Under the pieces are notes generated by a model. It searched no databases. It saw nothing but the letters and a program-made list of their open reading frames with translations, and was not told the DNA's origin. DNA of 64,000 nt from an uncultured Candidatus Saccharibacteria bacterium. Lineage in GTDB: Bacteria > Patescibacteriota > Minisyncoccia > Phycocordibacterales > JACNGX01. Shown here piece by piece: positions 7,373 through 52,926 of the stretch; positions within the stretch are counted from its first letter, which is position 1, and the number at the start of each line of letters is the position of its first letter. The stretch lies in contig CAZULS010000001.1 in the NCBI GenBank assembly GCA_964621395.1, positions 135,920 to 199,919 of the forward strand. Reading direction: 5' to 3'. Both the position numbers and the translations under genes were made by a program.

Positions 7373-7374
7373 CG

Positions 7375-7410
7375 CAAAACCGCCCTCGAGGCGGTTTTGC
7401 GTTATTTGTT
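7375..7410 (+). terminator. Rho-independent terminator after the basic mini-ORF
   Basis: AAACCGCCCTCGAGGCGGTTT hairpin + TTGCGTTATTTGTT. Confidence 0.6.
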
Positions 7411-7551
7411 CAGGAATATGAAAAACGAAATATGGAATATGGTGTACGGCGTAGCTTCGCTCTGTCGCACGCTCGAAACTCGAAACTTGACTCTCGAAAC
7501 TCAACGAAAAAACTCCGCGGTGCGGAGTTTTTTCGTAAGTGGGTGATGCGT

Positions 7552-7824
7552 TTATTTCACCGCATCCTTGAGGGCTTTCGCCGCACGGAACTTCGGTACG
7601 CGCTGCGCGGGAACCTGAACGGCTTCACCGGTGCGCGGATTGCGTGCCGTGCGTGCCGCACGCATCTTTGCCGAGAAGATGCCGAGACCCGCGATGGACA
7701 CTTCGTCGCCCGCCTTCAGCGTGTCAACGATTGCATCAAGCATTGCGTCTACGGCGCGTTCAGCGTCCGCTTTGGTGCTGCCGGTTTTTTCCGCAACAAC
7801 ATCAACGATAGCTGCTTTATTCAT
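7552..7824 (-). CDS. hup: HU family DNA-binding protein
   Basis: 90 aa from MNKAAIVDVVAEKTGSTKADAERAVDAMLDAIV ... GLGIFSAKMRAARTARNPRTGEAVQVPAQRVPKFRAAKALKDAV; canonical HU/IHF arm motif RNPRTGE. The track ORF 7552..7896 has a 24-aa N-terminal over-extension. Confidence 0.85.
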   Translation of the reverse strand: MNKAAIVDVVAEKTGSTKADAERAVDAMLDAIVDTLKAGDEVSIAGLGIFSAKMRAARTARNPRTGEAVQVPAQRVPKFRAAKALKDAVK

Positions 7825-8380
7825 GGGATGTATTTCAAGAGAATATCTCTTGTACGTTAGTCGGGTAAAATCGACCTCGTCGAGTATATTTTCCAATCAT
7901 CCTTGCGGACGTTATTGAGAAATAGACTCCTTTCAATCCCGGAAACGGGTTCGCTTCCTATAAAACATTATAAAACAATGCTTTTTACGGGGACAATCTT
8001 GACATGTGAATAAGATGTTGCATGAGTTTTGGGGACAGTGTTGAAAATAAAGGATAAATTGCAAATAATTCGTTTTTTGTGTTTACGCAACGTATATTTT
8101 AGGCAGAAATTGTCCACCACACACCACTTTTTATGAGCGAGCGTCTTGCGGTAGTGTATTTCACGAAACGAGCATCTTTTGTATCGTTGGTTTGCGCATT
8201 GTGAAAAGATGGTGTGCGGTACGCGCTAAAACAAAAACGCCCTGACGGGTCTTTGAAAAGGAGGCATACCACACACCACTTTATATTGGACAACGTGAGA
8301 AGGTTTTTCGTGTATATGTAACATAAGTATTTTTATGGTTATTTGAGTGTATTAAAAGATGGTGTGCGGTACGCGCGATA

Positions 8381-8412
8381 AAGAAAAGCCCTTTCGGGCT
8401 TTTCTTTATCGC
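8381..8412. terminator. 19-bp-stem perfect palindrome GCGCGATAAAGAAAAGCCC-TTTC-GGGCTTTTCTTTATCGCGC, bidirectional terminator downstream of rny
   Basis: Read directly; the stop of rny (8406) is embedded in the stem flank. Confidence 0.6.
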
Positions 8413-9968
8413 GCGTACTCTATAACCTTCGTCTCTCGTATCACATGAACCTTAATTTCTCCCGGATATTTGAGCTCTGTCTCTATCTGACGAGCGATTT
8501 TTTGTGCCAAATCTTTTGCCTGCATATCAGTAATTTTCTCCGGCGACACGAAAATGCGGATTTCCCGCCCCGCTTGGAGGGCAAAACATTTCTCCACGCC
8601 TTCAAACGACAAGGTAATCTTCTCCAAATCTTCCAAACGCTTCAAATATTGCTCAATGGAATCGCGCCGTGCGCCCGGACGTCCGCCTGAAATCGCGTCA
8701 GCCGTTTGCACAATAATAGACTCAAGTGTTTCATACGGATATTCTTCATGATGCGACTGCATTGCCTTCACGATTGCCTCATCAGCACCAAATTTCTGCA
8801 AAATACGGCGACCGATTTCCACGTGGGTGCCCTGCACCTCATGATCCACCGCCTTTCCGATATCGTGGAGAAGTGCGCCTGCTTTGGCAATAGGCACGCT
8901 TGCCCCGAGTTCCTCAGCAATCATGCCGGCAATATGCGCCATTTCCACGGAATGCTGAAGCACATTCTGCCCGTAGCTGGTGCGGAAGTGTAAACGCCCC
9001 AAAATGGCAATAATGCGCGGATCAAGATTGAGAATACCGCATTCATATGCCGCCTGCTCACCCTTATCTTTAATGATTTTACTGATTTCGTCTTTTGCCT
9101 TGACGATATAATCTTCAATCTTCGCCGGCTGGATGCGTCCGTCTAGAATGAGATTTTCAAGCGCAACGCGAGCAATCTGACGGCGAACCGGATCAAAGGA
9201 AGAAATGGTAATAGCGCCGGGCGTGTCATCAACGATCACATCCACGCCGGCGGCGCGCTCGAATGCTTTGATGTTGCGTCCTTCTTTTCCGATAATCTTT
9301 CCCTTTATTTCATCCGAGGGAAGGGTAATCGTTGTGGAGGTGATATCGGCATTGGTTGCATTGGCATAGCGCTGCACCGCCGTTGTGAGGATCTCTTGTG
9401 CGCGGCGGTCGAGTTTTTCGGTATTGGCGTTTTCAAGCTTCTGAATACGCACAAGCAAATCTTCTTCATATTGCGCCTCAGCACGCTTATACAATTCCTC
9501 GCGAGCTTCCTCGGAGGAAAGATTGCCAACACGCTCCAATTCTTTTTGCTGCTCTTCTACTGATTTCTCCACTGACTCGCGAATTCCCTTCACTTCCTCG
9601 ATGCGATGTTTCACTTCTTCAATCTGCTTGTCGATATCAAGCTGACGCTTATCCAGGAAGTCTTCTTTTTTCACCAAACGCTGTTCAAGTTCTTTGGCGT
9701 CTGCCTTCTTCTCCTTCGCCTCCTTCTCAGCGTCTCTTAACACGTGCTCCGCTTTTTTCTCCGCTTCGTGTGTGATTTTTGTTGCCGCTTCTTCCGCCGA
9801 AAGACGCATGCGTTTGATCTCAAGCTCCATGCTGCCCTTTTTCCCGAGGGAGATGATGAAACGCAGGAAATACCCGAGGGCGACTCCGACGAGCACGGCG
9901 CCTCCGGCTATCAAAAACATAAAAAGAGTAAAGCTCATACCTGCATGTTCCTCCGAACACGACAACAC
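8406..9968 (-). CDS. rny: Ribonuclease Y
   Basis: 520 aa; N-terminal TM, coiled-coil, KH domain (IIGKEGRNIKAFE) and HD domain (LLHDIGKAVDHE). Confidence 0.9.
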   Translation of the reverse strand: MLSCSEEHAGMSFTLFMFLIAGGAVLVGVALGYFLRFIISLGKKGSMELEIKRMRLSAEEAATKITHEAEKKAEHVLRDAEKEAKEKKADAKELEQRLVKKEDFLDKRQLDIDKQIEEVKHRIEEVKGIRESVEKSVEEQQKELERVGNLSSEEAREELYKRAEAQYEEDLLVRIQKLENANTEKLDRRAQEILTTAVQRYANATNADITSTTITLPSDEIKGKIIGKEGRNIKAFERAAGVDVIVDDTPGAITISSFDPVRRQIARVALENLILDGRIQPAKIEDYIVKAKDEISKIIKDKGEQAAYECGILNLDPRIIAILGRLHFRTSYGQNVLQHSVEMAHIAGMIAEELGASVPIAKAGALLHDIGKAVDHEVQGTHVEIGRRILQKFGADEAIVKAMQSHHEEYPYETLESIIVQTADAISGGRPGARRDSIEQYLKRLEDLEKITLSFEGVEKCFALQAGREIRIFVSPEKITDMQAKDLAQKIARQIETELKYPGEIKVHVIRETKVIEYAR

Positions 9969-10096
9969 AGGGCTTTCATTCAGGCGTACGACAAACTATG
10001 CGCGCATGGGTGTTATGCGACGCGAAAAGAAAAGACGAAAAGCGTTGAAACGAAAATCCAAAATCATACGTGTTCGTAATGGAAAGATAATTTCGA

Positions 10097-10285
10097 GAGC
10101 CTGTTCACGGTTCTCATGTCGTGCGTTAATGCATCATATACCGAGCGAAAATCGTGAAAAACGGTGATAGAGTACTATCGTACTTTGAGACGTTTTGAGC
10201 GATTTGCAGCCGGTATATGGTGCATTAAGCCGACAAGGATATATTGTTCTTCGTTTAATTCCGTTGAGAACTGTGAACAGGCTCT
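10097..10285. mobile_element. Family-C MITE (189 bp) with 19-bp TIRs GAGCCTGTTCACGGTTCTC / GAGAACTGTGAACAGGCTC
   Basis: Inverted termini read directly; near-identical internal sequence to the copy at 17903-18090 (opposite orientation) and the partial copy at 52690-52812. Confidence 0.7.
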
Positions 10286-17353: not shown

Positions 17354-17902
17354 ATGACCAAAAAAGAGAAATTATTACAAACAGCACTGGAGCTATTTGC
17401 CACACAAGGCGTGGGCAATACCTCTACGGCTCAGATTACACAGGAAGCTGGTGTGGCTGAAGGGACACTCTTTGTGCATTTCAAAAACAAACAAGCACTT
17501 GTCGATGCTGTGTATACACACATTAAAGCGCATGAGGCGGAAGTGTTTGGAGAGGCAATTCATCAAGAAAAAAGCGCGGAGGCTAATGTTAAAGAACTGT
17601 CAAAGAGCATGGTCCGACATTTTGTGGAACACTACAATGAATTGTTGTTTATTGAGAACGTGAAGCACTTGGATTTGGTGTCGGAGAAAGCTGTGAAGGA
17701 AGCGCATACATCACTTACCGTACTTTTTGAAGTGTTTGCAACGTGGCAAAAGAGAGGAGAGATAAAGGCGGTTGATTTGAATGTACTTGGTGCCATGGTG
17801 TGGGCAATGATAGTATCGCTCACAGAATATTGTAAGAAGAATAACAAAAAAGTCACCGATATGTTGGTGGAGCCGATTTGGGATGCGGTCAAGTCTCACT
17901 AA
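17354..17902 (+). CDS. TetR/AcrR family transcriptional regulator
   Basis: 182 aa; N-terminal HTH LLQTALELFATQGVGNTSTAQITQEAGVAEGTLFVHFKNKQALVDAVY. Confidence 0.8.
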   Translation: MTKKEKLLQTALELFATQGVGNTSTAQITQEAGVAEGTLFVHFKNKQALVDAVYTHIKAHEAEVFGEAIHQEKSAEANVKELSKSMVRHFVEHYNELLFIENVKHLDLVSEKAVKEAHTSLTVLFEVFATWQKRGEIKAVDLNVLGAMVWAMIVSLTEYCKKNNKKVTDMLVEPIWDAVKSH

Positions 17903-18090
17903 GAGCCTGTTCATGGTTCTCAACGGAATTGAAAGAAAAAGAATAAATCCTTGTCGGCTTAATACACTGTTATACCGGCTGCAAATCGCTTAAAATGTCT
18001 TGAAGTACGAGAGTACTCCCGCGCCATTTTTCACGATTTTCGCTCGGTATAACAGTGCATTACGCACGACAAAGAACCATGAACAGGATC
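17903..18090. mobile_element. Family-C MITE (188 bp), TIR GAGCCTGTTCATGGTTCTC / AGAACCATGAACAGGATC; begins 1 nt after the TetR stop codon
   Basis: Near-identical to 10097-10285 in inverse orientation. Confidence 0.7.
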
Positions 18091-18104
18091 TAACATCGCC
18101 AAAT

Positions 18105-24088: not shown

Positions 24089-25843
24089 ATGCATGCCGAT
24101 GAAACACAATTGAAAACATTTATTGTTGATTCCGGACTTATTGCCGCAGACGATCTCCTTGCGGCGGAGAAGAAGGCCAAAAAAGGGAAAAAGGCGCTCA
24201 AGGAGGTAATTCTCTCTGAAGGGCTGCTTTCGGAAGACGATCTGAGACGAGTGGAGGCGCATGTCTTTGGTATTCCCTTTGTGAATCTGAAAAATCATAA
24301 GATTGATTTTGAACTCCTTTCACTTATTCCGGAACCGATTGCGCGACGTCACAATATTATCGCCTTCAAAAAAGGAGAGGGTTCTTTGGAGGTTGCCATG
24401 CTTGATACCGATGATCTGGCAGCTATTGATTTCATCAAAAAGAAGGTGGGACTGAAAATATTGCCGCGTATTACCGATACGGCATCAATTAAGTCGGCAC
24501 TGTTGCAGTATCAAAAAAACCTCAAGGCTGAATTTGGCGACATGATTAAGGAAGAAGCAGAGGTTCTGAAGGCGGTACCGGAAAGTAAAGAAGGAGAACA
24601 GCTTTCAGAGGGTGATTTGAAAAAACTCGCTGAAGATTTACCGGTGGTGAAAATTGTCGATTCGCTCTTGAAACATGCCATTGTGCAAAATGCCTCCGAT
24701 ATTCATATTGAGCCGCAGGAAAAGGAACTTCTCATTCGCTATCGTATCGATGGTATTCTCCACGATGCCATGGTGTTGCCGAAGGCTGCGGGTCCCGGTA
24801 TTGCCGCTCGCGTAAAAGTGCTTTCAGATCTCAAACTTGATGAAAAGCGCTTGCCGCAGGATGGCCGTTTTAAAATCATCCAGAATGAAGAGAAGGTGTC
24901 GTTTCGTGTGTCCACCATCCCGACCGCTTTTGGCGAAAAAACAGTGATGCGACTTCTCCGTGAGCGCTCAAGTGGCTTCACGCTCGAGACACTCGGTTTT
25001 CACGGGGTGGGTGAAGAGCGTATTCAAGAAGCAACACGGCAAAAGACCGGTATGATTCTTGTGACCGGACCGACAGGATCGGGAAAGACGACAACGCTCT
25101 ACACCATTCTTGATATTTTGAATACTCCGGAAGTAAATATTTCCACGGTAGAAGACCCGATTGAGTATCAGGTGCCGCGCATCAATCAGACACAAGTGCG
25201 GCCGGATATTGGTTTTACCTTTTCAAAAGGATTGCGTGCGCTCGTGCGTCAGGACCCGGACATCATTCTTGTGGGCGAGATTCGTGACACCGAAACGGCA
25301 AGTCTTGGTGTGAACGCTGCCCTTACCGGTCATTTGGTGCTTTCCACGCTCCACACCAATTCCGCCGGTGGCACCATTCCGCGTATGCTTGAGATGGACG
25401 TGGAATCTTTTCTCCTTGTCTCCACAGTGAATGTTATTATCGGGCAGCGACTCGTGAGAAAACTCTGCGACACGAAAGAAAAATATTTCTTGACCAAGAG
25501 TGAAATTACGCAGCTTGGCGAAGAAGCGAATCTTGATTTGGTGATGACATACCTCAAGGAGGAGAAGGTGGTCGATGCGAAGGCAACATGGGAAAAGATT
25601 CCGTTTTATAAGCCAAAGAAGAGTGCACAGAGTGAAAGTGGATATTCCGGACGTATCGGTATTCATGAAATCTTACGCATGTCTGATGGTATCCGCACTC
25701 TTGTCATGGCAGACGCGACAGCTCATGAGATTCAAGAGCAGGCGCGGAAAGAAGGTATGATGACAATGCTTGAAGACGGTATCTTTAAGGCGGCGGCAGG
25801 AACAACGAGTATTGAGGAAGTGCTTCGCGTTGTGTCGGAATAA
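24089..25843 (+). CDS. pilB: Type IV pilus assembly ATPase PilB (GspE family)
   Basis: 584 aa; N-terminal GSPII domain, Walker A GPTGSGKTT, Asp/His boxes. Confidence 0.9.
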   Translation: MHADETQLKTFIVDSGLIAADDLLAAEKKAKKGKKALKEVILSEGLLSEDDLRRVEAHVFGIPFVNLKNHKIDFELLSLIPEPIARRHNIIAFKKGEGSLEVAMLDTDDLAAIDFIKKKVGLKILPRITDTASIKSALLQYQKNLKAEFGDMIKEEAEVLKAVPESKEGEQLSEGDLKKLAEDLPVVKIVDSLLKHAIVQNASDIHIEPQEKELLIRYRIDGILHDAMVLPKAAGPGIAARVKVLSDLKLDEKRLPQDGRFKIIQNEEKVSFRVSTIPTAFGEKTVMRLLRERSSGFTLETLGFHGVGEERIQEATRQKTGMILVTGPTGSGKTTTLYTILDILNTPEVNISTVEDPIEYQVPRINQTQVRPDIGFTFSKGLRALVRQDPDIILVGEIRDTETASLGVNAALTGHLVLSTLHTNSAGGTIPRMLEMDVESFLLVSTVNVIIGQRLVRKLCDTKEKYFLTKSEITQLGEEANLDLVMTYLKEEKVVDAKATWEKIPFYKPKKSAQSESGYSGRIGIHEILRMSDGIRTLVMADATAHEIQEQARKEGMMTMLEDGIFKAAAGTTSIEEVLRVVSE

Positions 25844-25845
25844 AA

Positions 25846-26046
25846 CATTACGAATAACGAATAACGCGAATATACGAATACACAATCATACCATTCTTGA
25901 CTCACGTATATGTCTGTCGCTATACGCTGTACCGAAACACCACAAAGAAACAATATTGACGCTACATGTTAATCGTAAGTCCGAAGCAGAGAAGCGACCC
26001 ATTCGTATATTCGCATCATATTCGTAATTCGTAATTGTTCGTAACT
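25846..26046. mobile_element. Family-B ACGAAT-rich MITE (approx 200 bp), copy 1; TIR ATTACGAATAACGAATAACGCGAATATACGAATACACAAT ... ATTCGTATATTCGCATCATATTCGTAATTCGTAAT
   Basis: Four near-identical copies occupy every spacer of the pilus cluster; diverged or composite copies at 45279-45446, 53449-53645, 54254-54420, 56216-56322, 61812-61858. Confidence 0.75.
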
Positions 26047-26158
26047 AAAAACACACGAAGATCCTGAATCAAGTTCAGGATGACATCGAAAGTGGTTTAT
26101 ATGTCAAAAATCAGATTCGTATGTTCGTACCGATTCGTAATTCGTAATTTGTTTATCC

Positions 26159-27376
26159 ATGCAGTTTACCTATACCACCATTAATAAGGAAGGGGAGCGG
26201 GAAGAAGGGCGTGCCTATGCGTCTGACAAATTTGCGCTTTCAGCACTTCTGAAAAAAGAAGGGAAAACACTTGTCTCCGCCGAAGAGGTGAAGAAGGGAG
26301 TGTTTTCTTCGATGAAGAATATCGCTCTCTTTAAGCGTATCTCAATGGATGAAAAGATTATGTTTGCGCACAACCTCGCAGCCATGACGCGCGCAGGACT
26401 TTCTCTCTCGCGGACACTTTCCATTCTTGAGCGGCAAAGTACGAATACACGTTTTAAGGAAGTAATGAATGCTCTTGCCGAGACGATTAAAAAGGGAGGA
26501 ACATTGGCCGATGCACTGCGGGAATTTCCCACAGAGTTTTCGCCGCTCTTTGTCTCTATGGTGCATGCCGGTGAAGAATCGGGCGGCTTGGCTGATGCGC
26601 TCGAAGTGGTGGGAACACAAATGAAAAAGAATCATGAGCTTGTAAAGAAGGTAAAGGGTGCCATGATTTATCCGTCGATCGTGATTGGGGTGATGGTACT
26701 TGTCGGGATAGTGATGATTGTGAAGGTGGTGCCAACACTCACGGCGACATTTGTTGAACTCGATGTTGAGTTGCCTGCTGCGACAAAGATTTTGATCGCT
26801 GTCTCTGACGCACTGCGAGACCATTTCCTTCTTGTGCTCTCCGGGGGAGTACTTCTCATTCTTCTTTTTGTATACGCAATGAAAACACAACGCGGTCGGG
26901 AGATTAAAGATGCGCTGTTGCTCCGCATGCCTCTTATCGGTGGTTTTGTCCGAGAATTCAATGCCGCACGCACAGCACGCACACTCTCTTCTCTTCTCTC
27001 TTCAGGGGTTGATATCGTTCAGTCGCTTGTCATCACGCGTGATGTGATTCAAAACACGCAATTTAAGAACACAGTGAGCAGCGCTTCGGAACGTATCCAA
27101 AAAGGCATACTGCTTTCCGTGCTCTTTTCCGAGGAAAAGGCAGGTGCACTCTATCCGATTTTGTTTTCCGAAATGATTGCCGTGGGAGAGGAGACGGGAA
27201 AAGTATCTGATATGCTTGAAGAAGTGGCGCTGTATTATGAAGGTGAGGTGGAAGCGGCAACGAAAAATATGTCGACGATTGTTGAGCCGATTCTCATGCT
27301 CATTGTGGGTGTTGTGGTGGGATTTTTCGCTCTTGCCATGATTACACCGATGTATAGCGTCATGAGCGGAATATAA
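26159..27376 (+). CDS. pilC: Type IV pilus inner-membrane platform protein PilC (GspF family)
   Basis: 405 aa; two GspF repeats and three TM segments. Confidence 0.85.
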   Translation: MQFTYTTINKEGEREEGRAYASDKFALSALLKKEGKTLVSAEEVKKGVFSSMKNIALFKRISMDEKIMFAHNLAAMTRAGLSLSRTLSILERQSTNTRFKEVMNALAETIKKGGTLADALREFPTEFSPLFVSMVHAGEESGGLADALEVVGTQMKKNHELVKKVKGAMIYPSIVIGVMVLVGIVMIVKVVPTLTATFVELDVELPAATKILIAVSDALRDHFLLVLSGGVLLILLFVYAMKTQRGREIKDALLLRMPLIGGFVREFNAARTARTLSSLLSSGVDIVQSLVITRDVIQNTQFKNTVSSASERIQKGILLSVLFSEEKAGALYPILFSEMIAVGEETGKVSDMLEEVALYYEGEVEAATKNMSTIVEPILMLIVGVVVGFFALAMITPMYSVMSGI

Positions 27377-27566
27377 ATTACGAATGACGAATAACGCGAA
27401 TATACGAATACACAATCGTACCATTCTTGGCTTACGTATATGTCTGTTACTATACGTTGTACCGAAACACCATAAAGAAATATTATTAGTGCTAAATGCT
27501 AATCGTAAGCCCGAAGCAGAAAGAATACCCTTTCGTAGATTCGTATCATATTCGTAATTCGTAATA
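27377..27566. mobile_element. Family-B MITE, copy 2
   Basis: Starts 1 nt after the pilC stop; the right TIR ends 16 nt before the next ORF. Confidence 0.75.
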
Positions 27567-27632
27567 TAAAGAGAAGTATTTATGTCAGAAAACTTCCTCA
27601 AACCATATATAGCAAGACGAAAGGACAAAGGG

Positions 27633-29363
27633 ATGAATCTTTCCCGTGGGTTTACCTTCATCGATATTCTCATTGGCATGGCGCTGATGTTGATTGTGTT
27701 TGTTTCTCTCGTCGGCGTGTTTCGTATGAGTATCGGCGTCATCGTACAGAGCAAGGCGCGAGTGGGTGCCCTTGCGCTGGTCCAGGAACGAGTGGAATTT
27801 CTCCGAAGTCTTTCATACGACGAGGTGGCAACGGAGAATGGTATCCCCGAAGGATCTCTTAAGCAAGAAGAAGCAATTACGCTTAACGGTATTCTCTACG
27901 AAAGACGTACGTTTGTGCAATATGTGGACGCACCCCAAGACGGTACGGGAAATGATGATGAGAATAATGTCCCCACCGATTATAAGGTTGCCAAAGTGGA
28001 AGTTTCTTGGACGGTGAGCGGCGTTGAAAAGAGCGTGGCGGCTGTCACCAATGTGATGCCACCCGGTATTGAAACCAATGAAGGGGGTGGGACGCTCATC
28101 ATCGAAGTGTTTGACGCTCTTTCCTCGCCCGTACAAGGAGCGACGGTGCATATCGTAAACACAAACATTGCTCCGGCGGTAGACGTGGAGGTTTCTACCA
28201 ATGAGAATGGACGGGTGATGTTTCCGGGAAGTCCGTCGGCAAACGACTATGAAATGACTGTGACAAAAAACGGATATAATTCAGCACAAACACGCGATGT
28301 AACCGCCGAGTTGCCTGTGCCGCTTCCCGGGCATGTGTCTGTTTTGGAAGGAGAAACAACAGAGGTAAGCTTTGCCATCGACCTTTTGGGGAGTTTGCGC
28401 ATTGATACGTGGCTGCCCATATTGCCGTATGTGTGGGAAGATACAATGGATACAACAGCACAGATGCAGTTCTTCAACCAAATCGCGCTTTCCTTCGGCA
28501 GTGTGGCCCTGGGAGACAGTGGTCATGGATATTATACAAACGGATCAATCATGTCTGAGGACATAACGCATACGTATCTTGATTCTTGGGATGCGTTTTC
28601 CTGGAGCGACACAACGCCTCCCGGTACCACTATTCTGTACCATGTGTACGATGCCGATACGGATACGCGTATTCCCGATGTGGTGCTTCCGGGAAATGCG
28701 GCAGGATTTTCTTCTTCTCCGGTGTCGCTATCTCTCCTTGCGCCTGAAACATACACAACGCTTTCTGTGGAAGCTCTTTTTGAAACATCTGCAACGAGCA
28801 CAACACCCGCGCTTCATGAATGGAGTGTATCATATGAAGCCGGACCAATTCCCGTGGGAGACGTACCATTTTCTCTTTCAGGAACAAAGTCTATCGGTTT
28901 TGACGGCGAGGGAGAACCGGTACTTGCCTACGATACCAATCAGGTAACAGATGCAAACGGTAACATCGTCATCGATCTTCTGACGTGGGATACGTATACG
29001 GTTATCGTTGATGATGATGCGTCGGGATACGATGTACGGGCATTGTGTCCGGAGGCACCGTTTGGAGTTGATCCCGGTGAGAATGAAGAAGTGGATATCT
29101 ATCTTGCGCCCGATACACAGCACTCTCTTCGAGTGATTGTCTATACGACTGAGCCGGCACCGGCAGCAGGTGTGGATGTGGAGCTTTCACGGAGTGGATT
29201 TTCCGCGGAAGAAACAACCGACTCATGTGGACAGGCCTTTTTTGCAGATCTTGTCTCTTCAAGTAATTATGTTCTCAGTGTGGACGATTCTCCCTTTGGT
29301 ACTGGAACGGTGAGCGATGTGTCGGTGGATGGTGTGTCGTTTGAAGAGGTGTGGTTGGAGTAG
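27633..29363 (+). CDS. Large pilin-like protein with prepilin-type N-terminal cleavage/methylation domain
   Basis: Leader MNLSRG then FTFIDILIGMALMLIVFVSLVG (class III signal; Asp at +5 instead of Glu); 577 aa; C-terminal region with repeated beta-rich segments. The track ORF starts 17 codons earlier (27582). Confidence 0.6.
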   Translation: MNLSRGFTFIDILIGMALMLIVFVSLVGVFRMSIGVIVQSKARVGALALVQERVEFLRSLSYDEVATENGIPEGSLKQEEAITLNGILYERRTFVQYVDAPQDGTGNDDENNVPTDYKVAKVEVSWTVSGVEKSVAAVTNVMPPGIETNEGGGTLIIEVFDALSSPVQGATVHIVNTNIAPAVDVEVSTNENGRVMFPGSPSANDYEMTVTKNGYNSAQTRDVTAELPVPLPGHVSVLEGETTEVSFAIDLLGSLRIDTWLPILPYVWEDTMDTTAQMQFFNQIALSFGSVALGDSGHGYYTNGSIMSEDITHTYLDSWDAFSWSDTTPPGTTILYHVYDADTDTRIPDVVLPGNAAGFSSSPVSLSLLAPETYTTLSVEALFETSATSTTPALHEWSVSYEAGPIPVGDVPFSLSGTKSIGFDGEGEPVLAYDTNQVTDANGNIVIDLLTWDTYTVIVDDDASGYDVRALCPEAPFGVDPGENEEVDIYLAPDTQHSLRVIVYTTEPAPAAGVDVELSRSGFSAEETTDSCGQAFFADLVSSSNYVLSVDDSPFGTGTVSDVSVDGVSFEEVWLE

Positions 29364-29366
29364 CAA

Positions 29367-29557
29367 AATTACGAATGACAAATAACGCGAATATACGAAT
29401 ACACAATCGTACCGATAGAAGTTCTTATATTCGTATTATCACAATCTATTGTAATGGGAGATCACAAAGAATATATACGTGTCATATGATAAACGTAAGC
29501 CCGAAGCAGAAAGAACACCCATTCGTAGATTCGTATTATATTCGTAATTCGTAATAT
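29367..29557. mobile_element. Family-B MITE, copy 3
   Basis: As above. Confidence 0.75.
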
Positions 29558-29611
29558 TAAGAAGAATACATGTTTCATCATTCCAAACAATTGAAAAAAG
29601 AAAGACGACGG

Positions 29612-30217
29612 ATGAATGTATCGCGTGTTTCCGGTATCTCCATCGTAGAAATGGTTGTATCAATTGCAATGGCAACATTTGCCATTGTTGCTATCGGCTC
29701 GTTTACCATATCGTTTTATCGCACTAATGCCTACGGTATCGAACAATCGTTTGCCATCCATTCTGCCCGTAAAGGTATCGACCTTATGGTGCGTGACATC
29801 CGTGAAGCAACCTATTCTGACGAGGGGAGTTTCCCTGTGGTATCAATCGCACCGTATGCAATGGTTGTGTACAGTGATGTTGATCGTGATGATTCAGTAG
29901 AGCGCATCAGTTTTTCGCTTGAGGGTACAAACCTTATCCGAGGAAAAGCTGAGAGTGCAGGCGATCCGCCGGTATATCCGGGAGAGAACGATGAAGAGTA
30001 TAGCGTTTCCGATTCCGTCCGCAACGAAACGTATGGAACACCGATATTTCAATATTATGATGAATCAGGAAATGAAATTACCGACTACGACGCTGTGACC
30101 GATGTGGTGTTTGTGACCGTGAATGTGTTGGTGAATATTAATCCGAGTCGTTTGCCGCGTGATTTTTCTTTGCGTTCCAGTGCGTCATTGCGAAATACGC
30201 GTGTCGGTACGGAGTAG
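29612..30217 (+). CDS. Pilin-like protein (prepilin-type N-terminal domain)
   Basis: Leader MNVSRVSG then ISIVEMVVSIAMATFAIVAIG (G | hydrophobic helix with Glu at +5); approx 201 aa mature. The track ORF begins 14 codons earlier. Confidence 0.6.
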   Translation: MNVSRVSGISIVEMVVSIAMATFAIVAIGSFTISFYRTNAYGIEQSFAIHSARKGIDLMVRDIREATYSDEGSFPVVSIAPYAMVVYSDVDRDDSVERISFSLEGTNLIRGKAESAGDPPVYPGENDEEYSVSDSVRNETYGTPIFQYYDESGNEITDYDAVTDVVFVTVNVLVNINPSRLPRDFSLRSSASLRNTRVGTE

Positions 30218-30220
30218 CAG

Positions 30221-30408
30221 AATTACGAATGACGAATAACGCGAATATACGAATACACAATCTACCATTCTTGGCTCACGTATATGTCTGTCGCTATACG
30301 CTGTACCGAAACACCACAAAGAAATATCTTGGCATAAGACGACAGCCACAAGCCCGAAGCAGAAAGAATACCCATTCGTAGATTCGTATCATATTCGTAA
30401 TTCGTAAC
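30221..30408. mobile_element. Family-B MITE, copy 4; right end carries TATAAT 9 nt upstream of the next ATG
   Basis: As above; sequence ...TTCGTAACTGTAGTATAATAGAAACAATATG. Confidence 0.75.
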
Positions 30409-30428
30409 TGTAGTATAATAGAAACAAT

Positions 30429-31832
30429 ATGAACGATGTACATTCCTCTCGCGGATATATGATGATTATGGTGCTGGTGTTTGGCGCCGTGTTTATTACA
30501 CTCATGGGTGGTTTGTCGGGGTTTGTGTTGATGCAAAAGAACGTTACTGAGAAAAAAGAGTATGCCGAACAGGCGCTTCAAATTGCCGAAGCGGGACTCG
30601 AATATTACCGATGGTTTCTTTCCCACAACCCGGGTGATACAACAGACGGGACCGGAGAACCCGGTCCCTATGAGCACATCTATGCCGATCCGGAAGGAGG
30701 AGATATTGGAACGTTTTCTCTCAATATCGCAGGGACTGTCTCATGCAGTGAAATTACCTCCATTGATATTTATTCAACGGGATGGGTTGATGCTGATCCT
30801 GATGTGACGCGAACGGTATACGGCAAATATACTCGTCCGTCTGTCGCCGAATATGCGTATGTCTTAAATGATAATGTATGGGCGGGAAGCGACCGACAGA
30901 TTTATGGTCCGTATCATTCCAATCTTGGTATTCGCATGGACGGAACCAATCACTCTATTGTGACATCAGGCGTGGAAGAGTGGCGATGTACGAGCAGCTT
31001 TGGCTGCTCTCCTTCGCGGGATGAGAGCGGAGTATTTGGTGACGGACCCAATACCGAACTATGGGACTTTCCCGCGGAGACGGTTGATTTTGTGGGCATC
31101 TCCGTTGACCTGGTGCATATGAAAGATCGCGCGCAAAACGGAGGCGGTTTGTATTTTCCCAAAGTATCAAATTGGCGAAACCGTGAGGGATACCGCGTGA
31201 TTTTTCGGGAGAGCGGCACCATTGATGTCTATGAGGTGACGAGCACGCGGAGGGTATGGAGTGAGCCGGTCGGACGCGCCACGGAAGATAATTACGAAAG
31301 AATTCATTCGCAGCACTATGTGGGGAATTATGACATACCGGAGGAGTGCAGTTTACTGTTTTTCGAAGATAATCTGTGGGTGGAAGGAGAGGTGGAAGGA
31401 AGAGTAACGCTTGTATCCGCCAACGTGACTGATCCGGGAACCGATACCAACGTGTACCTCATTGATGATATTACCTATGCAGATACCCAGAGCGGGTTGA
31501 CGCTTCTCGGTGAGCACTCGGTCTTGATTGCGTACGATGTGCCGTATAATCTTGAACTTCGCGGTATTTTCATCGCACAAATGGGATCGTTCGGGCGGAA
31601 TTATTACAATCCATGGTGGTTGTCGCTCTCTAAGCGAGGAGTGCTTGAAATGACCGGCAGCATCGTATCCAACGGACGCGTGGGAACAAAGTGGACGTCT
31701 TGGGGATCCCATGTATCGGGCTTTGCACAGCGATATAACTCCTATGATCGACAGCTTGCGGGGGATCCGCCACCGTTTACGCCGTATATGGACGATGAGT
31801 ATCGTTTTGTCGAGTGGCGACAGGAGGAATAA
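30429..31832 (+). CDS. PilX-like pilus assembly / minor pilin protein
   Basis: 467 aa; N-terminal TM helix then QALQIAEAGLEYYRWFL, matching the PilX N-terminal domain pattern (A..AEAG). Confidence 0.5.
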   Translation: MNDVHSSRGYMMIMVLVFGAVFITLMGGLSGFVLMQKNVTEKKEYAEQALQIAEAGLEYYRWFLSHNPGDTTDGTGEPGPYEHIYADPEGGDIGTFSLNIAGTVSCSEITSIDIYSTGWVDADPDVTRTVYGKYTRPSVAEYAYVLNDNVWAGSDRQIYGPYHSNLGIRMDGTNHSIVTSGVEEWRCTSSFGCSPSRDESGVFGDGPNTELWDFPAETVDFVGISVDLVHMKDRAQNGGGLYFPKVSNWRNREGYRVIFRESGTIDVYEVTSTRRVWSEPVGRATEDNYERIHSQHYVGNYDIPEECSLLFFEDNLWVEGEVEGRVTLVSANVTDPGTDTNVYLIDDITYADTQSGLTLLGEHSVLIAYDVPYNLELRGIFIAQMGSFGRNYYNPWWLSLSKRGVLEMTGSIVSNGRVGTKWTSWGSHVSGFAQRYNSYDRQLAGDPPPFTPYMDDEYRFVEWRQEE

Positions 31833-31920
31833 TGGTTGCTGGTCCTAGTTGGCGCGGCTTTCGCCGCGCCTTTTCCAATGTCCCCTGGTATTCCGCTTAT
31901 GTATGGGGGATAATATATGT

Positions 31921-32997
31921 ATGATGTCTACCCCACACATGGTGCGTCGCATTATATACGGTGCTTTTGTACTAATCATCGGATGTGTATTCTTGGTTCC
32001 GATTGCATACGCAAACCCTCATCAAAATATAGATGATGGAGGAACAGGTTCAGGTACCAACGGCTACGTCCTCCTCGAACCCAGTATTCTCGTTCAAGGA
32101 GGAGGCAAATCCGCAAGTCCCGCCGACTATCTCGAAAACATCTTCTACTTTATGATCGGCACAGCCGGTGTCTTGGCAGTCCTTGTATTTGCCATTGGCG
32201 GTATTCAGTTTATGGTCTCAGGTGCCACTCCTTCTGCAAAGAAGGAAGGACAAGAAAAAATGACTGCCGCCATCTTCGGACTCATCCTCGCTCTCGGCAC
32301 CTGGCTTATTTTAAACACTATCAATCCGGATTTGGTGAAGAAGTTTGACTTGAAGCTTGATACGGTGACGGTGACGGGGAGTGGGGGAACGGGAAGCGGA
32401 ACGAGCACTCCGGGGAACCTTCCCTCAAATCTTCCCATAGGATGTTCGAATTATAAGAATGCTTTTATCAATGCGGCAAACACTGCAAAAATTGACGCGT
32501 GTCTTCTCTATGCGGTTGCATCACAGGAGTCGGGCTGTAATCCCGGTTTGGTAAGTAAGGCGGGTGCATGTGGCATTATGCAAATGCTTCCCTCAACAGC
32601 AAATGCCTCATGCAACTGGCTCAAGACAAATCCCGAAGCAAGTATTCTCAGGGCGGCTTTTTATCTGAAAAGCAATGCAAACGGATTGCATGCATATGAC
32701 AGTATGTTTGATATCGGTAATGCATATGGTCAATCAGGAAAAACAGTGCAAGTTGGTGGCTTTATATATGATACGGGGAACGATGATCTCATTGCATCGT
32801 ACAATGCCGGAAATGGTACGGTATCAACAAATGGTCGAGGACCATTTTCCCTCTCCCAAGATTGTCCAAAATCAACATATGGGACGAACATCCCCGCATG
32901 GCAATGTCATATCAATCCGGGAGGATTTGATGAAACACAAAATTATGTTCGTCGCGTGCAGTCATATCAGGATATGTGTAATCTGAAAGGGTTGTAA
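31921..32997 (+). CDS. Fusion protein: signal peptide + VirB2/TrbC-like two-helix hairpin + lytic transglycosylase (SLT) domain
   Basis: Hairpin IFYFMIGTAGVLAVLVFAIGGIQFMVSG-ATPSAKKEGQEKM-TAAIFGLILALGTWLILNTI; SLT motif AVASQESGCNPGLVSKAGACGIMQMLPSTA (ES ... GLMQ ... TA). Start placed at MMSTPHMVRR because the track start (31849) overlaps a terminator hairpin. Confidence 0.55.
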   Translation: MMSTPHMVRRIIYGAFVLIIGCVFLVPIAYANPHQNIDDGGTGSGTNGYVLLEPSILVQGGGKSASPADYLENIFYFMIGTAGVLAVLVFAIGGIQFMVSGATPSAKKEGQEKMTAAIFGLILALGTWLILNTINPDLVKKFDLKLDTVTVTGSGGTGSGTSTPGNLPSNLPIGCSNYKNAFINAANTAKIDACLLYAVASQESGCNPGLVSKAGACGIMQMLPSTANASCNWLKTNPEASILRAAFYLKSNANGLHAYDSMFDIGNAYGQSGKTVQVGGFIYDTGNDDLIASYNAGNGTVSTNGRGPFSLSQDCPKSTYGTNIPAWQCHINPGGFDETQNYVRRVQSYQDMCNLKGL

Positions 32998-33018
32998 GTG
33001 TGATATAATTGAGAGAAG

Positions 33019-34053
33019 ATGATTCAGAGAATGCAACGTAATATGTGGGACGTGGGTATTCTTTTGGCAATCGTGTCGTGCGCGGTTGTTGTTTTTGGGG
33101 AGCCCACACTCGCGTATAGTCCTGAAGGAACCGGCTACGCCCTCCTCGAACCCAGTATTCTCGTTCAAGGAGGAGGCAAATCCGCAAGTCCCGCCGACTA
33201 TCTCGAAAACATCTTCTACTTTATGATCGGCACAGCCGGTGTCTTGGCAGTCCTTGTATTTGCCATTGGCGGTATTCAGTTTATGGTCTCAGGTGCCACT
33301 CCTTCTGCAAAGAAGGAAGGACAAGAAAAAATGACTGCCGCCATCTTCGGACTCATCCTCGCTCTCGGCACCTGGCTTATTTTAAACACTATCAATCCGG
33401 ATTTGGTGAAGAAGTTTGACTTGAAGCTTGATACGGTGACGGTGACGGGGAGTGGGGGAACGGGAAGTACATATGATGGGAAGTTGAATGAAATTACCAT
33501 AACAAGAGAAGATGGAACAACCTACACGTTTAGGGGAATACAAGACGCATATCAAAGCTCACCTGGATTGCAGCTCGTGGGGGAGGATGGAAAGTATCTT
33601 CCCGAGAAAATAACAAAGGAAGAGGCAATGCGATATACGCTTATGAAAGATAGTGATATTGTGATTACGAGTACAACAGGAAGTTCAAAGCCATGTACCT
33701 ATCCCGGACAAACGGGATGTACGGATCTCTATGGCATGAAAGCCGCGACAATAGAAGAAATAAAATATATTGATGAAAAAACAAAGGGTCAAGTTTTGGT
33801 GACGGGCGGCACGGAACATGGGCCACATGCTATCGGAGCGTATAGTCATGGAAGTGGACATAAGGTGGACATTGATGATACATCGAATGTGACTGATTAT
33901 GTGGAGAATAATTTTATTCGAAGAAAAGATTTAGATAGAGAAGGAACACATGCTTCTCGCGCATACGAAAATCCTGACACGGAAGCCATCTGGCATCATG
34001 AGTATAAGAAGAAAACGCATTTTGATGTAGTGGTGTATCCCGAGAGACCTTAA
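33019..34053 (+). CDS. Paralog: same VirB2/TrbC-like hairpin N-terminus (approx 330 bp identical DNA) + LAS/M15-like peptidase C-terminal domain
   Basis: Residues approx 40-150 are identical to the preceding gene; C-terminal GTEHGPHAIGAYSHGSGHKVDIDD resembles the VanY/M15 motif SxHxxGxAxDI. Confidence 0.5.
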   Translation: MIQRMQRNMWDVGILLAIVSCAVVVFGEPTLAYSPEGTGYALLEPSILVQGGGKSASPADYLENIFYFMIGTAGVLAVLVFAIGGIQFMVSGATPSAKKEGQEKMTAAIFGLILALGTWLILNTINPDLVKKFDLKLDTVTVTGSGGTGSTYDGKLNEITITREDGTTYTFRGIQDAYQSSPGLQLVGEDGKYLPEKITKEEAMRYTLMKDSDIVITSTTGSSKPCTYPGQTGCTDLYGMKAATIEEIKYIDEKTKGQVLVTGGTEHGPHAIGAYSHGSGHKVDIDDTSNVTDYVENNFIRRKDLDREGTHASRAYENPDTEAIWHHEYKKKTHFDVVVYPERP

Positions 34054-34055
34054 AA

Positions 34056-34100
34056 AGCACATAAACACGCGGCGCCGAAGGCGCCGCGTGTTTATGTGCT
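34056..34100 (+). terminator. 21-bp-stem terminator AGCACATAAACACGCGGCGCC-GAA-GGCGCCGCGTGTTTATGTGCT
   Basis: Read directly; starts 3 nt after the stop of 33019..34053. Confidence 0.6.
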
Positions 34101-34118
34101 TCATGCTATAATACCCCT

Positions 34119-34902: not shown

Positions 34903-35099
34903 CTATTTTGTTGTCATCCCGCACTTGATGCGGGATCTTCCCGAATTACCTTTAGAAACAAGACAGCGAAGATTCCGGGTCACCAGAGCCCCACTTTCAC
35001 CAATGCTGTATATGATAAAACATCTTCCACCCTTTCTTCTATCGTCTACGACCTCTTCATGTACTCAGTGAAAGTGAAGCTCGGCAGGAGCCCGGAATG
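34903..35099. mobile_element. Composite family-A/family-E repeat filling the tpiA-pgk spacer
   Basis: GTCATCCCGCACTTGATGCGGGATC hairpin, then CCAGAGCCCCACTTTCACC ... CAGTGAAAGTGAAGCTCGGCAGGAGCCCGGAATGACA; near-duplicate of 49620-49968. Confidence 0.65.
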
Positions 35100-36257
35100 A
35101 CATATACATTTATGAAATCATCACTCCCACAACTGAGTACTTTGAATGCAAATATGCTTCGCGGGAAGTATGTGCTTGTTCGTGCTGGGGTGAATGTGCC
35201 GCTTGTGAATGGAAAAGTGGCGGATGGTTTTCGTATTAAAAAAGCACTCCAAACGATTCACTTTCTCAAAAAGGCGGGGGCTCGTGTCATTGTGATTGCT
35301 CATATCGGACGTGACCCTAAGGAATCGCTTCTTCCTGTTGTACGCTACATGAACACCAAGACACGCATCGGATTTGCTTCGGATGTCTTTGGCCCGGCCA
35401 CTGAAAAGATGATTGCCAATATGAAAAACGGCACTGCCCTTCTTCTGGAAAACCTTCGTCAGCATGAGGAAGAAAAAGGGAATAACGTTGCCTTTGCAAA
35501 GCGTTTGGCGTCGTATGCGGATCTATATGTGAATGATGCCTTCTCTGTCTCTCACCGCGGACATGCTTCTATTGTCTCCATACCGAAATATCTTCCTTCG
35601 TATATCGGATTGTCATTCGAGGAGGAACACGGAGAACTTATGCGTATGCGTGAGCCAAAAGAGCCATTCGTGCTTGTGTTGGGCGGGGCGAAAATAAAAA
35701 CAAAGATGCCACTCTTGTCTCTCTATGCGAAAAAAGGAGACACGGTGTGTGTCGGCGGTGCAATTGCTAACACCTTGCTCAAAGCGCGAGGATATGAAAT
35801 CGGAAAGTCTGTTGCCGATGATACGAAAGAGCTTTCAGCTTTGGCGAAGAAAAAGAATATTCTCTTGCCGGTTGATGTTGTGGTGGAAACGGCAAAAAAA
35901 GAGCGCATCGTGCGGGATGTGGGTGATATACGGAAAACGGATACCATTTTTGATATTGGTCCGGAGACGGTACGCACGTGGGAAGAAGTGTTGTCACATG
36001 CGAAATCAATTGTGGCAAATGGTCCTTTGGGGTGGTATGAAAAAGGGTATACGAAGGGAACGAAAGATATATTGAAGGTTATTGCACAAGGCAGTGCGCG
36101 GAGTGTGGTTGGTGGTGGCGATACGGTGGCGCTCGTACGAAGTGCAAAGATGGCTCAAGACATCACATTTCTCTCAACCGCCGGCGGCGCCATGCTTGAT
36201 TTCCTTGCTGATGGGAGTCTGCCCGGGATTAAGGCGATAATAGAAGTTAGGAATTAG
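35097..36257 (+). CDS. pgk: Phosphoglycerate kinase
   Basis: 386 aa; N-terminal RAGVNVPL ... hinge and C-terminal nucleotide-binding motifs; SD AGGAG 7 nt upstream. Confidence 0.9.
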   Translation: MTYTFMKSSLPQLSTLNANMLRGKYVLVRAGVNVPLVNGKVADGFRIKKALQTIHFLKKAGARVIVIAHIGRDPKESLLPVVRYMNTKTRIGFASDVFGPATEKMIANMKNGTALLLENLRQHEEEKGNNVAFAKRLASYADLYVNDAFSVSHRGHASIVSIPKYLPSYIGLSFEEEHGELMRMREPKEPFVLVLGGAKIKTKMPLLSLYAKKGDTVCVGGAIANTLLKARGYEIGKSVADDTKELSALAKKKNILLPVDVVVETAKKERIVRDVGDIRKTDTIFDIGPETVRTWEEVLSHAKSIVANGPLGWYEKGYTKGTKDILKVIAQGSARSVVGGGDTVALVRSAKMAQDITFLSTAGGAMLDFLADGSLPGIKAIIEVRN

Positions 36258-43603: not shown

Positions 43604-43736
43604 TGTCATTCCGTGCTTGACACGGAATCTAAAAACCAAGGTTGAGCTTTGGTATGTATACCAAAGCTCAACCTTGGTTTTCGAATAACACTCAGAAACA
43701 ATATAGCGGAGATCCCGCATCAAGTGCGGGATGACA
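43604..43736. mobile_element. Family-A MITE containing a 23-bp perfect palindrome (AAACCAAGGTTGAGCTTTGGTAT-GT-ATACCAAAGCTCAACCTTGGTTT, 43631-43678)
   Basis: Read directly. Confidence 0.65.
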
Positions 43737-49619: not shown

Positions 49620-49968
49620 CATGTACTGCTTGTCATCCTGTTTAATTTTCCCTCTGCCATCTCGCACCACCACTGTCATCCCGTCCAACCCCACATTGGT
49701 GAGCACGGAAATGTATATATTCAACCCAGCAACAATGCCACTGGCGAGTGCCATGTACTTTTCAGAATCATACATGTGGGGCTGGAATGCGGGATCTCCC
49801 CGAATAACCTCTGGGAAAAATATGTCGAAGATTCCCAATCACCAGAGCCCCACTTTCACCAACATAGTCTGTAATAAAACATTTTTCGTTTCTTCTTCTA
49901 TCGTTCACGGCTTCTTAATGTATTCAGTGAAAGTCGAGCTCGGCAGGAGTTGGGAATGACAAAAAATA
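49620..49968. mobile_element. Composite family-A/family-E repeat block downstream of fusA
   Basis: Contains TGTCATCC hairpin halves, GTGGGGCTGG, and CCAGAGCCCCACTTTCACC ... CAGTGAAAGTCGAGCTCGGCAGGAGTTGGGAATGACA (near-duplicate of 34903-35099). Confidence 0.6.
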
Positions 49969-52689: not shown

Positions 52690-52812
52690 CTTGTCGGCTG
52701 ACACGTTCGTATGCCGGCTGCAAATCGCTCAAAGCGTCTTGAAGTACGACAGTACTCCCGCGACACTTTTCACGATTTTCGCTCGACATACGGACGTGTC
52801 ACGCACGACATG
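52690..52812. repeat. Partial family-C MITE copy (internal region, no TIRs) downstream of tuf
   Basis: CTTGTCGGCTGACACGTTCGTATGCCGGCTGCAAATCGCTCAAAGCGTCTTGAAGTACGACAGTACTCCCGCG ... aligns with the interior of 17903-18090. Confidence 0.55.
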
Positions 52813-52926
52813 TTAATCGTAACCAAGCTCACAATTCATGTTTGCGTCGCGGTGGAAATCGTGACCAAACTTATTCTCCGGACACCCCTTCTCGAAAGGT
52901 AGGGGCACGTCCGCCCGCTCTGTTCT

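Follow-up and report, generated by a model that had tools for sequence, protein, structure and literature searches.

A pilin-type module shared by two tandem genes for predicted cell-wall hydrolases of a Candidatus Saccharibacteria bacterium and its apparent concerted evolution

Two adjacent genes, lying on the forward strand of a 64,000-nucleotide (nt) stretch of DNA from an uncultured Candidatus Saccharibacteria bacterium (contig CAZULS010000001.1 of assembly GCA_964621395.1, positions 135,920 to 199,919; the whole stretch is here called the window), encode proteins in which one and the same VirB2-like pilin module is followed by two different enzymatic heads. The head of gene 1 is predicted to be a lytic transglycosylase and that of gene 2 a zinc peptidase of the LAS fold, and the DNA encoding the module appears to be kept identical in the two genes by recurrent gene conversion. 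On balance, the pair is probably a bicistronic cassette that provides a matched glycan cutter and peptide cutter, both exported on one shared pilin-type handle. What is new here is the fusion of the pilin module to hydrolases; VirB2-like pilins and specialised cell-wall hydrolases were each already known. No description of such fusions was found in the literature searched, which included the main paper on the type IV secretion system (T4SS) of Patescibacteria, and an earlier publication is still possible.

A tandem gene pair with an identical internal repeat

Both open reading frames (ORFs) are as given in a preliminary description of this DNA, made from its letters alone. Gene 1 (31921-32997), whose mechanical ORF begins with a TTG at 31849, encodes 358 amino acids (aa) when read from the ATG at 31921 and has a GGGGGA ribosome-binding site 10 nt 5' of the ATG. 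On the basis of the ORF and of Pfam, its product comprises a signal peptide, the VirB2-like pilin module, a Gly/Thr/Ser linker, an SLT lytic transglycosylase domain and a Cys-containing C-terminal extension. Gene 2 (33019-34053) starts 21 nt beyond the stop of gene 1, with a GAGAG-type ribosome-binding site between the two; its 344-aa product, for which an identical entry exists in public data (P0145), opens with a signal peptide, repeats the pilin module of gene 1, again according to the ORF and Pfam, and ends, beyond a linker, in a LAS-fold zinc-peptidase-like domain. From hydropathy, a Sec signal peptide is predicted at aa 1-31 of gene 1 (31921-32013, ending in PIAYA, outside the repeat), with a probable cleavage site at an AxA-type motif, and another at aa 1-34 of gene 2 (33019-33120, ending in TLAYS), which AlphaFold models as a helix at residues 2-26. 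The two signal peptides are unrelated to each other.

Positions 32070-32396 and 33141-33467 are the same 327 nt without any difference, at an offset of 1071; a repeat of this length is far above chance expectation. The match widens to 336 nt (32061-32396 and 33132-33467) with a single mismatch, at 32069. The edges of the repeat are sharp, and neither the signal-peptide regions upstream nor the catalytic domains downstream have detectable similarity between the two genes. The figure of 100% identity is perhaps slightly too high, since bubble-popping in short-read metagenome assembly may do away with a small number of true differences that separate the copies. The identical block of about 330 bp announced in the preliminary description therefore exists, with the peptide quoted for it correct and the hyphens in that peptide not being gaps; the coordinates given there (32068-32395 and 33142-33470) deviate by 1-3 nt and would give an offset of 1074 instead of the true 1071.

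Each copy of the repeat encodes the pilin module and its linker. In copy 1, delimited by its identity to copy 2, by the Pfam family PF18895, by AlphaFold and by hydropathy, helix A (32128-32223) is followed by a polar and basic loop (32224-32262), helix B (32263-32337) and the linker (32338-32397). The corresponding positions in copy 2 are 33199-33294 for helix A, 33295-33333 for the loop and 33334-33408 for helix B.

The pilin-type module and its relatives

The two-helix module is a VirB2-like pilin module placed behind a signal peptide. PF18895 (T4SS_pilin) is matched with 33.7 bits (E 3.9e-08) by gene 1, with 33.8 bits (E 3.7e-08) by gene 2 and with 37.3 bits by the module alone, the curated gathering threshold of this Pfam family being 26.6 bits. 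The next-best match, TrbC/VirB2 (PF04956), reaches 18.9 bits and falls under its own threshold; a VirB2/TrbC-like hairpin, as first proposed from the letters, is thus recovered in both proteins, with PF18895 as its family. Hydropathy gives three hydrophobic stretches per protein, the signal peptide and the two helices. AlphaFold places helices at residues 2-26, 58-93 and 95-125, with a short unstructured stretch after the signal-peptide helix and a predicted local distance difference test (pLDDT) of about 80 in the hairpin, in which the loop ATPSAKKEGQEKM joins two long hydrophobic helices. Members of PF18895 are normally free-standing and about 100-150 aa long, a norm from which the fusions depart with their 358 and 344 aa.

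Among the close relatives of the module, which are 50-55% identical to it, nearly every one is a free-standing pilin with a length of 117-143 aa. Pilins from T4SS clusters, at this same level of identity, share with the module a conserved mature N-terminal Y-x-LLEP motif and the end LNTINPD. The nearest free-standing relatives are 54% identical, and the two that were traced (loci L032 and L033) both belong to T4SS clusters, with the gene order PrgI, TraC-like, VirB4-type ATPase, an unassigned gene, the pilin and another unassigned gene, adjoining yidC-rnpA-rpmH-dnaA. The unassigned genes that flank these free pilins show no relation to either enzyme head. This is the origin-proximal layout of the T4SS cluster that is known in Patescibacteria (PMC12102498). 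A fusion is also found in this setting: in a Saccharibacteria metagenome-assembled genome (MAG; L004), a 414-aa pilin-SLT protein is encoded directly after a conserved T4SS-cluster gene of 411-432 aa (E 1e-52) and before yidC-rnpA-dnaA.

The enzyme head of gene 1

Family-1 lytic transglycosylases are characterised by a catalytic Glu in an E-S motif, by G-L/I-M-Q and by A/S-Y-N-x-G. In gene 1 the SLT domain of this family (PF01464; aa 181-306, 32461-32838) scores 57.3 bits (E 1.5e-15) against a cut-off of 21.3, and contains QES at aa 202-204 (32524-32532, with E203 as the Glu), GIMQM at 218-222 (32572-32586) and SYNAG at 293-297 (32797-32811). Weaker NCBIfam matches are to specialised lytic transglycosylases. 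The SLT assignment made beforehand from the ES and GIMQM motifs is in agreement with these results, and the head of gene 1 can be regarded as a predicted SLT lytic transglycosylase, a cutter of glycan strands.

The enzyme head of gene 2 and its family

The head of gene 2 (33601-34038) was identified by fold comparison alone, and not by sequence searches. In fact, its 194-aa C-terminus has no Pfam match at E <= 10, like that of five other members of the family, and no NCBIfam match; searches of the PDB, both with the single sequence and with a 121-sequence profile, gave no useful sequence match. A word-indexed search with the head alone returned 1 homolog, and a three-sequence profile 380 relatives. 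With 121 of the relatives, AlphaFold gave a confident model (pLDDT 86.8, predicted template modelling score 0.78), whose fold is that of the LAS or clan MD zinc peptidases (VldE-C, 9flh; MepA, 1tzp; the S. albus DD-carboxypeptidase, 1lbu; VanX, 1r44; the L-Ala-D-Glu peptidases of phage T5 and Ply500) and of the Hedgehog N-domain.

From a catalytic perspective, the putative zinc triad is formed by H277 (33847-33849), D284 (33868-33870) and H334 (34018-34020). VldE, a proven L,D-endopeptidase, binds zinc through H301, D308 and H375, which are spaced in the same way as H277-x6-D284...H334. With hhalign, H277 and D284 fall on the zinc motif LHYEGRAVD of Sonic hedgehog, a weak alignment (E 0.006) made with a hedgehog sequence entered by hand. 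Nine residues are invariant across 121 sequences of the family, namely T235, E266, H270, H277, G280, K282, D284, H334 and D336; the third-ligand motif is the invariant H334-W/F-D336, and the canonical H-x-H of LAS zinc peptidases is not found. The pattern T..E...H......H..G.K.D...H.D recurs throughout the family (proteins P0041-P0144).

The gene 2 head is therefore best described, from its modelled structure, as a predicted LAS-fold zinc-peptidase-like enzyme of a family that has no sequence model. The preliminary description had called it LAS/M15-like: the SHGSGHKVDI motif and the LAS fold hold, and profile membership in the Peptidase_M15 families (M15, M15_2/3/4, VanY) does not. Two UniRef relatives bear the name 'Peptidase M15A C-terminal domain-containing protein', which is a label and not a test.

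This head is found behind several kinds of N-terminal handle. It follows PF18895 in at least 28 protein clusters, WXG100 type VII secretion handles in 9 clusters among the matches listed, and PG_binding_1 or PG_binding_3 domains in 10 actinomycete clusters among the matches listed; in Streptomyces and in some fungi it is the sole domain. It thus appears, from these architectures, to act as a portable secreted cargo on interchangeable handles (WXG100, PG_binding_1/3 or PF18895). An association with peptidoglycan-binding domains is common to LAS peptidases and to this family. The proteins with PG_binding domains come from Streptomyces, Kitasatospora and Ktedonobacteria; the fungal ones, of about 160 aa, include those of Coprinopsis cinerea and a Cercospora entry labelled 'Ecp2 effector'. 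At the one WXG100-LAS locus inspected, no core genes for type VII secretion occur within 7 kb, nor was any evident immunity gene seen.

Recurrence of the pair in Patescibacteria

A second clade of Patescibacteria (L029, L030, L031 and L035; at about 8-11 kb of each locus) has a pilin-LAS gene at a fixed position, upstream of miaA-(ahpC)-parB-relA-topA-dprA-serS, with or without a pilin-glycosidase partner. Among them, L029 holds the pilin-SLT/pilin-LAS pair in this different neighbourhood, so that the pair recurs beyond the pilus-operon setting that it has in the window. In L030 the pilin is fused to a different, possibly lysozyme-like head, with an intervening 192-aa gene. A scan of metagenomes returned only the contig of L001 (described below) under another accession, together with pilin-only matches. 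In these genomes, the pilin-SLT/pilin-LAS pair is a conserved unit across lineages of Patescibacteria. Moreover, the modular swapping on a common carrier that had been suggested for the window is supported by architectures in both directions, the module occurring with other heads and the head with other handles.

Concerted evolution of the module

The locus L001, from a Parcubacteria MAG (NIOZ-UU136), is fully syntenic with the window and carries PilB, PilC, three pilus-associated proteins, pilin-SLT, pilin-LAS, triosephosphate isomerase (TIM) and PGK. Its gene 1 ortholog is 64% identical to gene 1. Within L001 the two genes share 323 identical nt (6824-7146 and 8321-8643), and its module is only 73-74% identical to that of the window. 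The likewise syntenic assemblies L027 and L028 each have two distinct copies of the module, with cores 99.6% identical. Taken together, the module cores are 99.6-100% identical within the window, L001, L027 and L028, and 61-74% identical between lineages. Between the window and L001 the module differs by 29 synonymous and 24 non-synonymous codons, and no synonymous difference separates the two copies within either genome. In the more distant L029 the copies of the same pair are 78.5% identical over 261 nt.

Since the module is identical within genomes and yet diverged between them, synonymous sites included, it is apparently homogenised by recurrent gene conversion, the tract being bounded by the unrelated flanks. 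Under a single old duplication, the paralogs would be at least as divergent as the orthologs, and this explanation was rejected. Protein-level selection alone was rejected as the cause of the identity, as synonymous sites are identical too; a recent duplication and an assembly collapse were each rejected on the identity matrix across genomes, and an assembly artefact on the presence of the same pattern in four assemblies. That two real copies exist follows from L027 and L028, where the copies differ at a few sites and are therefore separate loci. The preliminary description had offered a very recent duplication or ongoing gene conversion; three other assemblies, with two further lineages among them, speak for the second and against the first.

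Concerted evolution through RecA-dependent gene conversion is known for duplicated bacterial genes such as tufA/tufB and the rRNA operons. Like these, the paralogs of the pair are identical within a genome, including synonymous sites, while the orthologs diverge. The difference is that conversion in the window would reach no further than one internal domain, of about 330 bp, shared by two genes that are unrelated elsewhere; unlike tufA/tufB, the pair is a mosaic of a homogenised handle with independent heads and signal peptides.

Some further observations concern the related contigs. Two contigs of Moranbacteria MAGs (L002, 1-240, and L003, 1-360) start inside or just after the pilin module of the SLT gene, and such breaks fit identical module repeats in those genomes, although this is suggestive only. 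In L001 the gene 1 ortholog changes frame about 60 codons before its end (7560-7780), the orthologous C-terminus running on in the other frame; this is either a sequencing error, the MAG having 8x coverage, or a real pseudogenising event. The gene 2 ortholog of L001 begins with about 170 additional aa, including a signal peptide of its own, before the pilin module (7785-8320), and the module is therefore able to carry cargo on both sides.

A proposed mechanism and its alternatives

In the cassette proposed above, genes 1 and 2 would be co-transcribed and the signal peptide of each product would export its N-terminus through Sec. The two hydrophobic helices would then span the membrane as in VirB2, leaving the lysine-rich loop on the cytoplasmic side and the enzyme outside, hanging from the pilin module by the flexible Gly/Thr linker. 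The head of gene 1 would cut glycan strands and that of gene 2 peptide stems or cross-links. The shared handle may feed both enzymes into the T4SS-pilin pathway, where they would dock at the machine or be minor subunits bearing an enzyme, so that glycan and peptide bonds would be cut together where a T4SS or pilin apparatus crosses a wall. The connection of the pair with T4SS pilins is drawn from the relatives in T4SS clusters, from the L004 fusion and from a trio of gene kinds in S. epibionticum. In fact, the essential T4SS cluster of the cultivated S. epibionticum ML1 has separate genes for VirB4 (SEML1_0008), for six PF18895 pilins (SEML1_0014-0019), for a lysozyme-like protein (SEML1_0006) and for a protein whose C-terminus is a Hedgehog/DD-peptidase domain (SEML1_0007); both the pilins and the cell-wall hydrolases are essential for its epibiotic growth (PMC10633639). 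The two enzyme kinds and the pilins that are separate in S. epibionticum are thus fused in the lineage of the window, where both enzyme kinds are joined to the pilin module.

As to the wall on which the enzymes act, we tentatively prefer, by analogy, a local opening of the cell's own wall, in which the pair would be a split, pilin-anchored equivalent of VirB1. We lean this way because the pair keeps to fixed chromosomal positions, because no immunity gene goes with it and because the two-activity hydrolases of monoderm T4SS offer a parallel. These VirB1-like proteins, PrgK of pCF10, TraG of pIP501 and CwlT of ICEBs1, open the wall locally at the T4SS and, as is predicted for the pair, combine glycan and peptide cleavage at a membrane anchor (PMC12102498). 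They differ in having both activities in one polypeptide with a single N-terminal transmembrane segment and a CHAP or NlpC/P60 peptidase, in place of two genes, pilin-type hairpins and a LAS-fold zinc peptidase, and no T4SS locus was found among the scanned genes of the window. Action on the wall of a host bacterium, possibly from a filament, is the second choice, rather unlikely yet a serious one; it has support from the WXG100 fusions and the epibiotic lifestyle.

Several observations weigh against a T4SS-linked cassette. No VirB4, VirB6, VirD4 or other T4SS gene occurs among the scanned genes of the 64-kb window, nor does any T4SS gene lie within 10 kb of the pair at any syntenic locus. In the clade of the window the pair closes the operon of a type IV pilus, and in the second clade it lies upstream of miaA-parB. 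A hidden Markov model search of all six-frame ORFs of the window detected no PF18895 copy or free-standing pilin beyond the two known modules. The model of the hairpin is of moderate confidence overall (pLDDT 69.5), and when it was compared with the PDB by Foldseek, the archaeal conjugative pilin of A. pernix (8dfu) came at rank 2 with E 0.46, amid generic helical hairpins, as is to be expected of so simple a fold. Furthermore, tandem homology could by itself make the modules identical, as a neutral by-product with no functional need behind it.

These observations bring forward a rather unlikely alternative, in which the pair encodes ordinary membrane-tethered autolysins that either make way through the wall for the adjacent type IV pilus or take part in growth and division, and PF18895 is a mere two-helix anchor with no role in a T4SS. 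Besides the lack of any T4SS gene nearby among those scanned, this explanation accounts for the pair being the last unit of the PilB/PilC operon in four assemblies, for its fixed, housekeeping-like position in the second clade and for TIM, and no immunity-like gene, coming next. Specialised lytic transglycosylases are, moreover, known partners of pili, flagella and secretion systems, and the NCBIfam near-matches of gene 1 are of this kind. However, a module that is 50-55% identical to true T4SS-cluster pilins, down to Y-x-LLEP and LNTINPD, is no generic anchor, and a single transmembrane helix would suffice for anchoring. The link to the pilus operon is also limited to one lineage, being absent from L029-L031 and L035, and GC-rich hairpins on both sides separate the pair from the pilus genes.

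A second alternative is unlikely on the evidence at hand: the fusions would polymerise as minor subunits of a VirB2-like filament or be released, the identical modules letting both enzymes co-assemble, and the heads exposed at the surface would digest the wall of the host. The LAS-like head also sits on WXG100 type VII handles, in the kind of architecture that interbacterial toxins typically have, and a long flexible linker follows the module; the requirement of S. epibionticum for PF18895 pilins and wall hydrolases in epibiotic growth (PMC10633639) agrees with such a role. Precedents exist among type IV pilins, of which modular forms bearing functional domains are known. Nevertheless, polymerisation of PF18895 proteins is so far without support, the window has no major pilin and no immunity gene, a head of about 200 aa on each subunit would demand steric tolerance, and the WXG100-LAS context that was inspected is uninformative. 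In its boldest form, a VirB2-type filament with enzyme-bearing 'modular pilins', in which glycan and peptide cutters have a common polymerisation module that gene conversion keeps identical for their co-assembly, would make the secretion pilus itself the drill for the host wall, a possibility that we consider quite doubtful.

Finally, it is extremely improbable, and at odds with the data, that an assembly error copied the module or that a very recent duplication occurred with no continuing process, even though this is apparently a metagenome assembly, in which repeats beyond the k-mer length are prone to mis-joining or homogenisation, and L002 and L003 break exactly at the module: the tandem pair is present in L001, L027 and L028, assemblies from different samples, the copies of L027 and L028 differ at a few sites as separate loci would, homogenisation of the module took place separately in three lineages 26-39% apart, and it is implausible that recent insertions struck the same two genes independently and with identical boundaries.

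Comparison with pilin arrays and polymorphic effectors

Apart from the hydrolases of monoderm T4SS, two known systems resemble the cassette. The arrays of VirB2-like pilins of Patescibacteria, such as SEML1_0014-0019 of S. epibionticum and the 'Sec-secreted array' of N. lyticus TM7x (PMC12102498; PMC10633639), belong to the same Pfam family and phylum and have in common with the pair the signal peptide, the two-helix hydrophobic hairpin and the tandem arrangement. The pilins of such arrays are free-standing and highly divergent within an array, with a mean identity of 25% and a maximum of 54% (PMC12102498). They are free proteins of about 120-140 aa encoded beside virB4, whereas the modules of the window are identical, are each joined to an enzyme of about 200 aa and have no T4SS gene nearby. 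The polymorphic effectors that are substrates of type VII secretion (WXG100/LXG) resemble gene 2 in having a C-terminal enzyme behind interchangeable N-terminal trafficking handles. They differ from the pair, which has no immunity gene and occupies fixed chromosomal sites instead of variable toxin islands; moreover, the handle of the window is a membrane hairpin and theirs a soluble helical bundle.

Genomic context of the pair

The pair follows a type IV pilus operon (24089-31832, forward strand), as the preliminary description had it. From Pfam (T2SSE, T2SSF) and the ORFs, this operon comprises the PilB ATPase (T2SSE, 24089-25843), the PilC platform protein (T2SSF, 26159-27376) and three proteins of 593, 215 and 467 aa; L001 and L027/L028 show the same gene order. 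Prepilin-like hydrophobic N-termini (RGFTFIDILIG, GISIVEMVVS and RGYMMIMVLV) mark the three genes that follow PilC (27582-31832); their products have no Pfam or NCBIfam family match except for CarboxypepD_reg-type domains in the first, and may be large minor pilins of a Patescibacteria type IV pilus.

Between the end of the last pilus-operon gene (31832) and gene 1 lies a GC-rich hairpin on the forward strand (31851-31870; GGCGCGGC-TTTC-GCCGCGCC, followed by TTTTCC), which narrowly misses the T-run rule of the terminator scan and probably forms the upstream boundary of the two-gene unit. Directly 3' of the stop of gene 2, a perfect inverted repeat of 22 bp with a 3-nt loop (34055-34101) appears to mark the downstream boundary; it is followed by a TATAAT box and by the start of TIM at 34119. 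Thus gene 2 is directly followed by a hairpin and then by TIM, with no immunity gene.

The window also contains several families of intergenic repeats. The members of one family are about 190-200 bp long and have a mutual identity of 75-90% (25836-26035, 27367-27565, 29349-29566 and 30201-30411, with a fragment at 61809-61851). A copy lies in every one of the four gaps between the genes from PilB to the 467-aa gene, and the termini are inverted (5' ATTACGAATGACGAAT..., ...ATTCGTAATTCGTAAT 3'). These elements look like miniature inverted-repeat transposable elements; no Rfam family matches them, a tRNA being all that Rfam found in the window. The syntenic L001 and L027 have short gaps at these places, free of such elements. 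A second family, unrelated to the first and about 85% identical over 190 nt, is found at 10096-10285 (reverse strand), 17902-18091 (forward strand) and 52710-52830, and a third, 78% identical over 175 nt, at 34928-35102 (between TIM and PGK) and 49787-49961 (downstream of EF-G). Lastly, near-perfect intergenic palindromes of about 50 bp occur at 178-227, 7363-7411, 8369-8418, 34055-34101 (the repeat after gene 2), 43632-43681 and 58968-59021, and are probably bidirectional terminators or elements like repetitive extragenic palindromes.

Implications

Patescibacteria make up a large part of bacterial diversity. In S. epibionticum, the sole species tested genetically, their T4SS is essential for epibiotic growth (PMC10633639). 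Hydrolases of the same kinds as the heads of the pair are separate and essential in the T4SS cluster of that species, and their fusion to the module hints, in the manner of a 'Rosetta stone', that pilin and wall cutting cooperate. The pair also supplies parts that can be tested, namely both enzyme heads, the common handle and a set of defined active-site residues.

The analysis further delineates a widespread family of LAS-like, putative peptidoglycan peptidases without a sequence model, which appear as the cargo of three export or targeting handles, and it offers an unusually clean example of what seems to be concerted evolution limited to one domain in two otherwise unrelated genes. An enzyme-bearing filament, if real, would give conjugative-type pili their first example with catalytic subunits and would provide a route for the access of an epibiont to its host.

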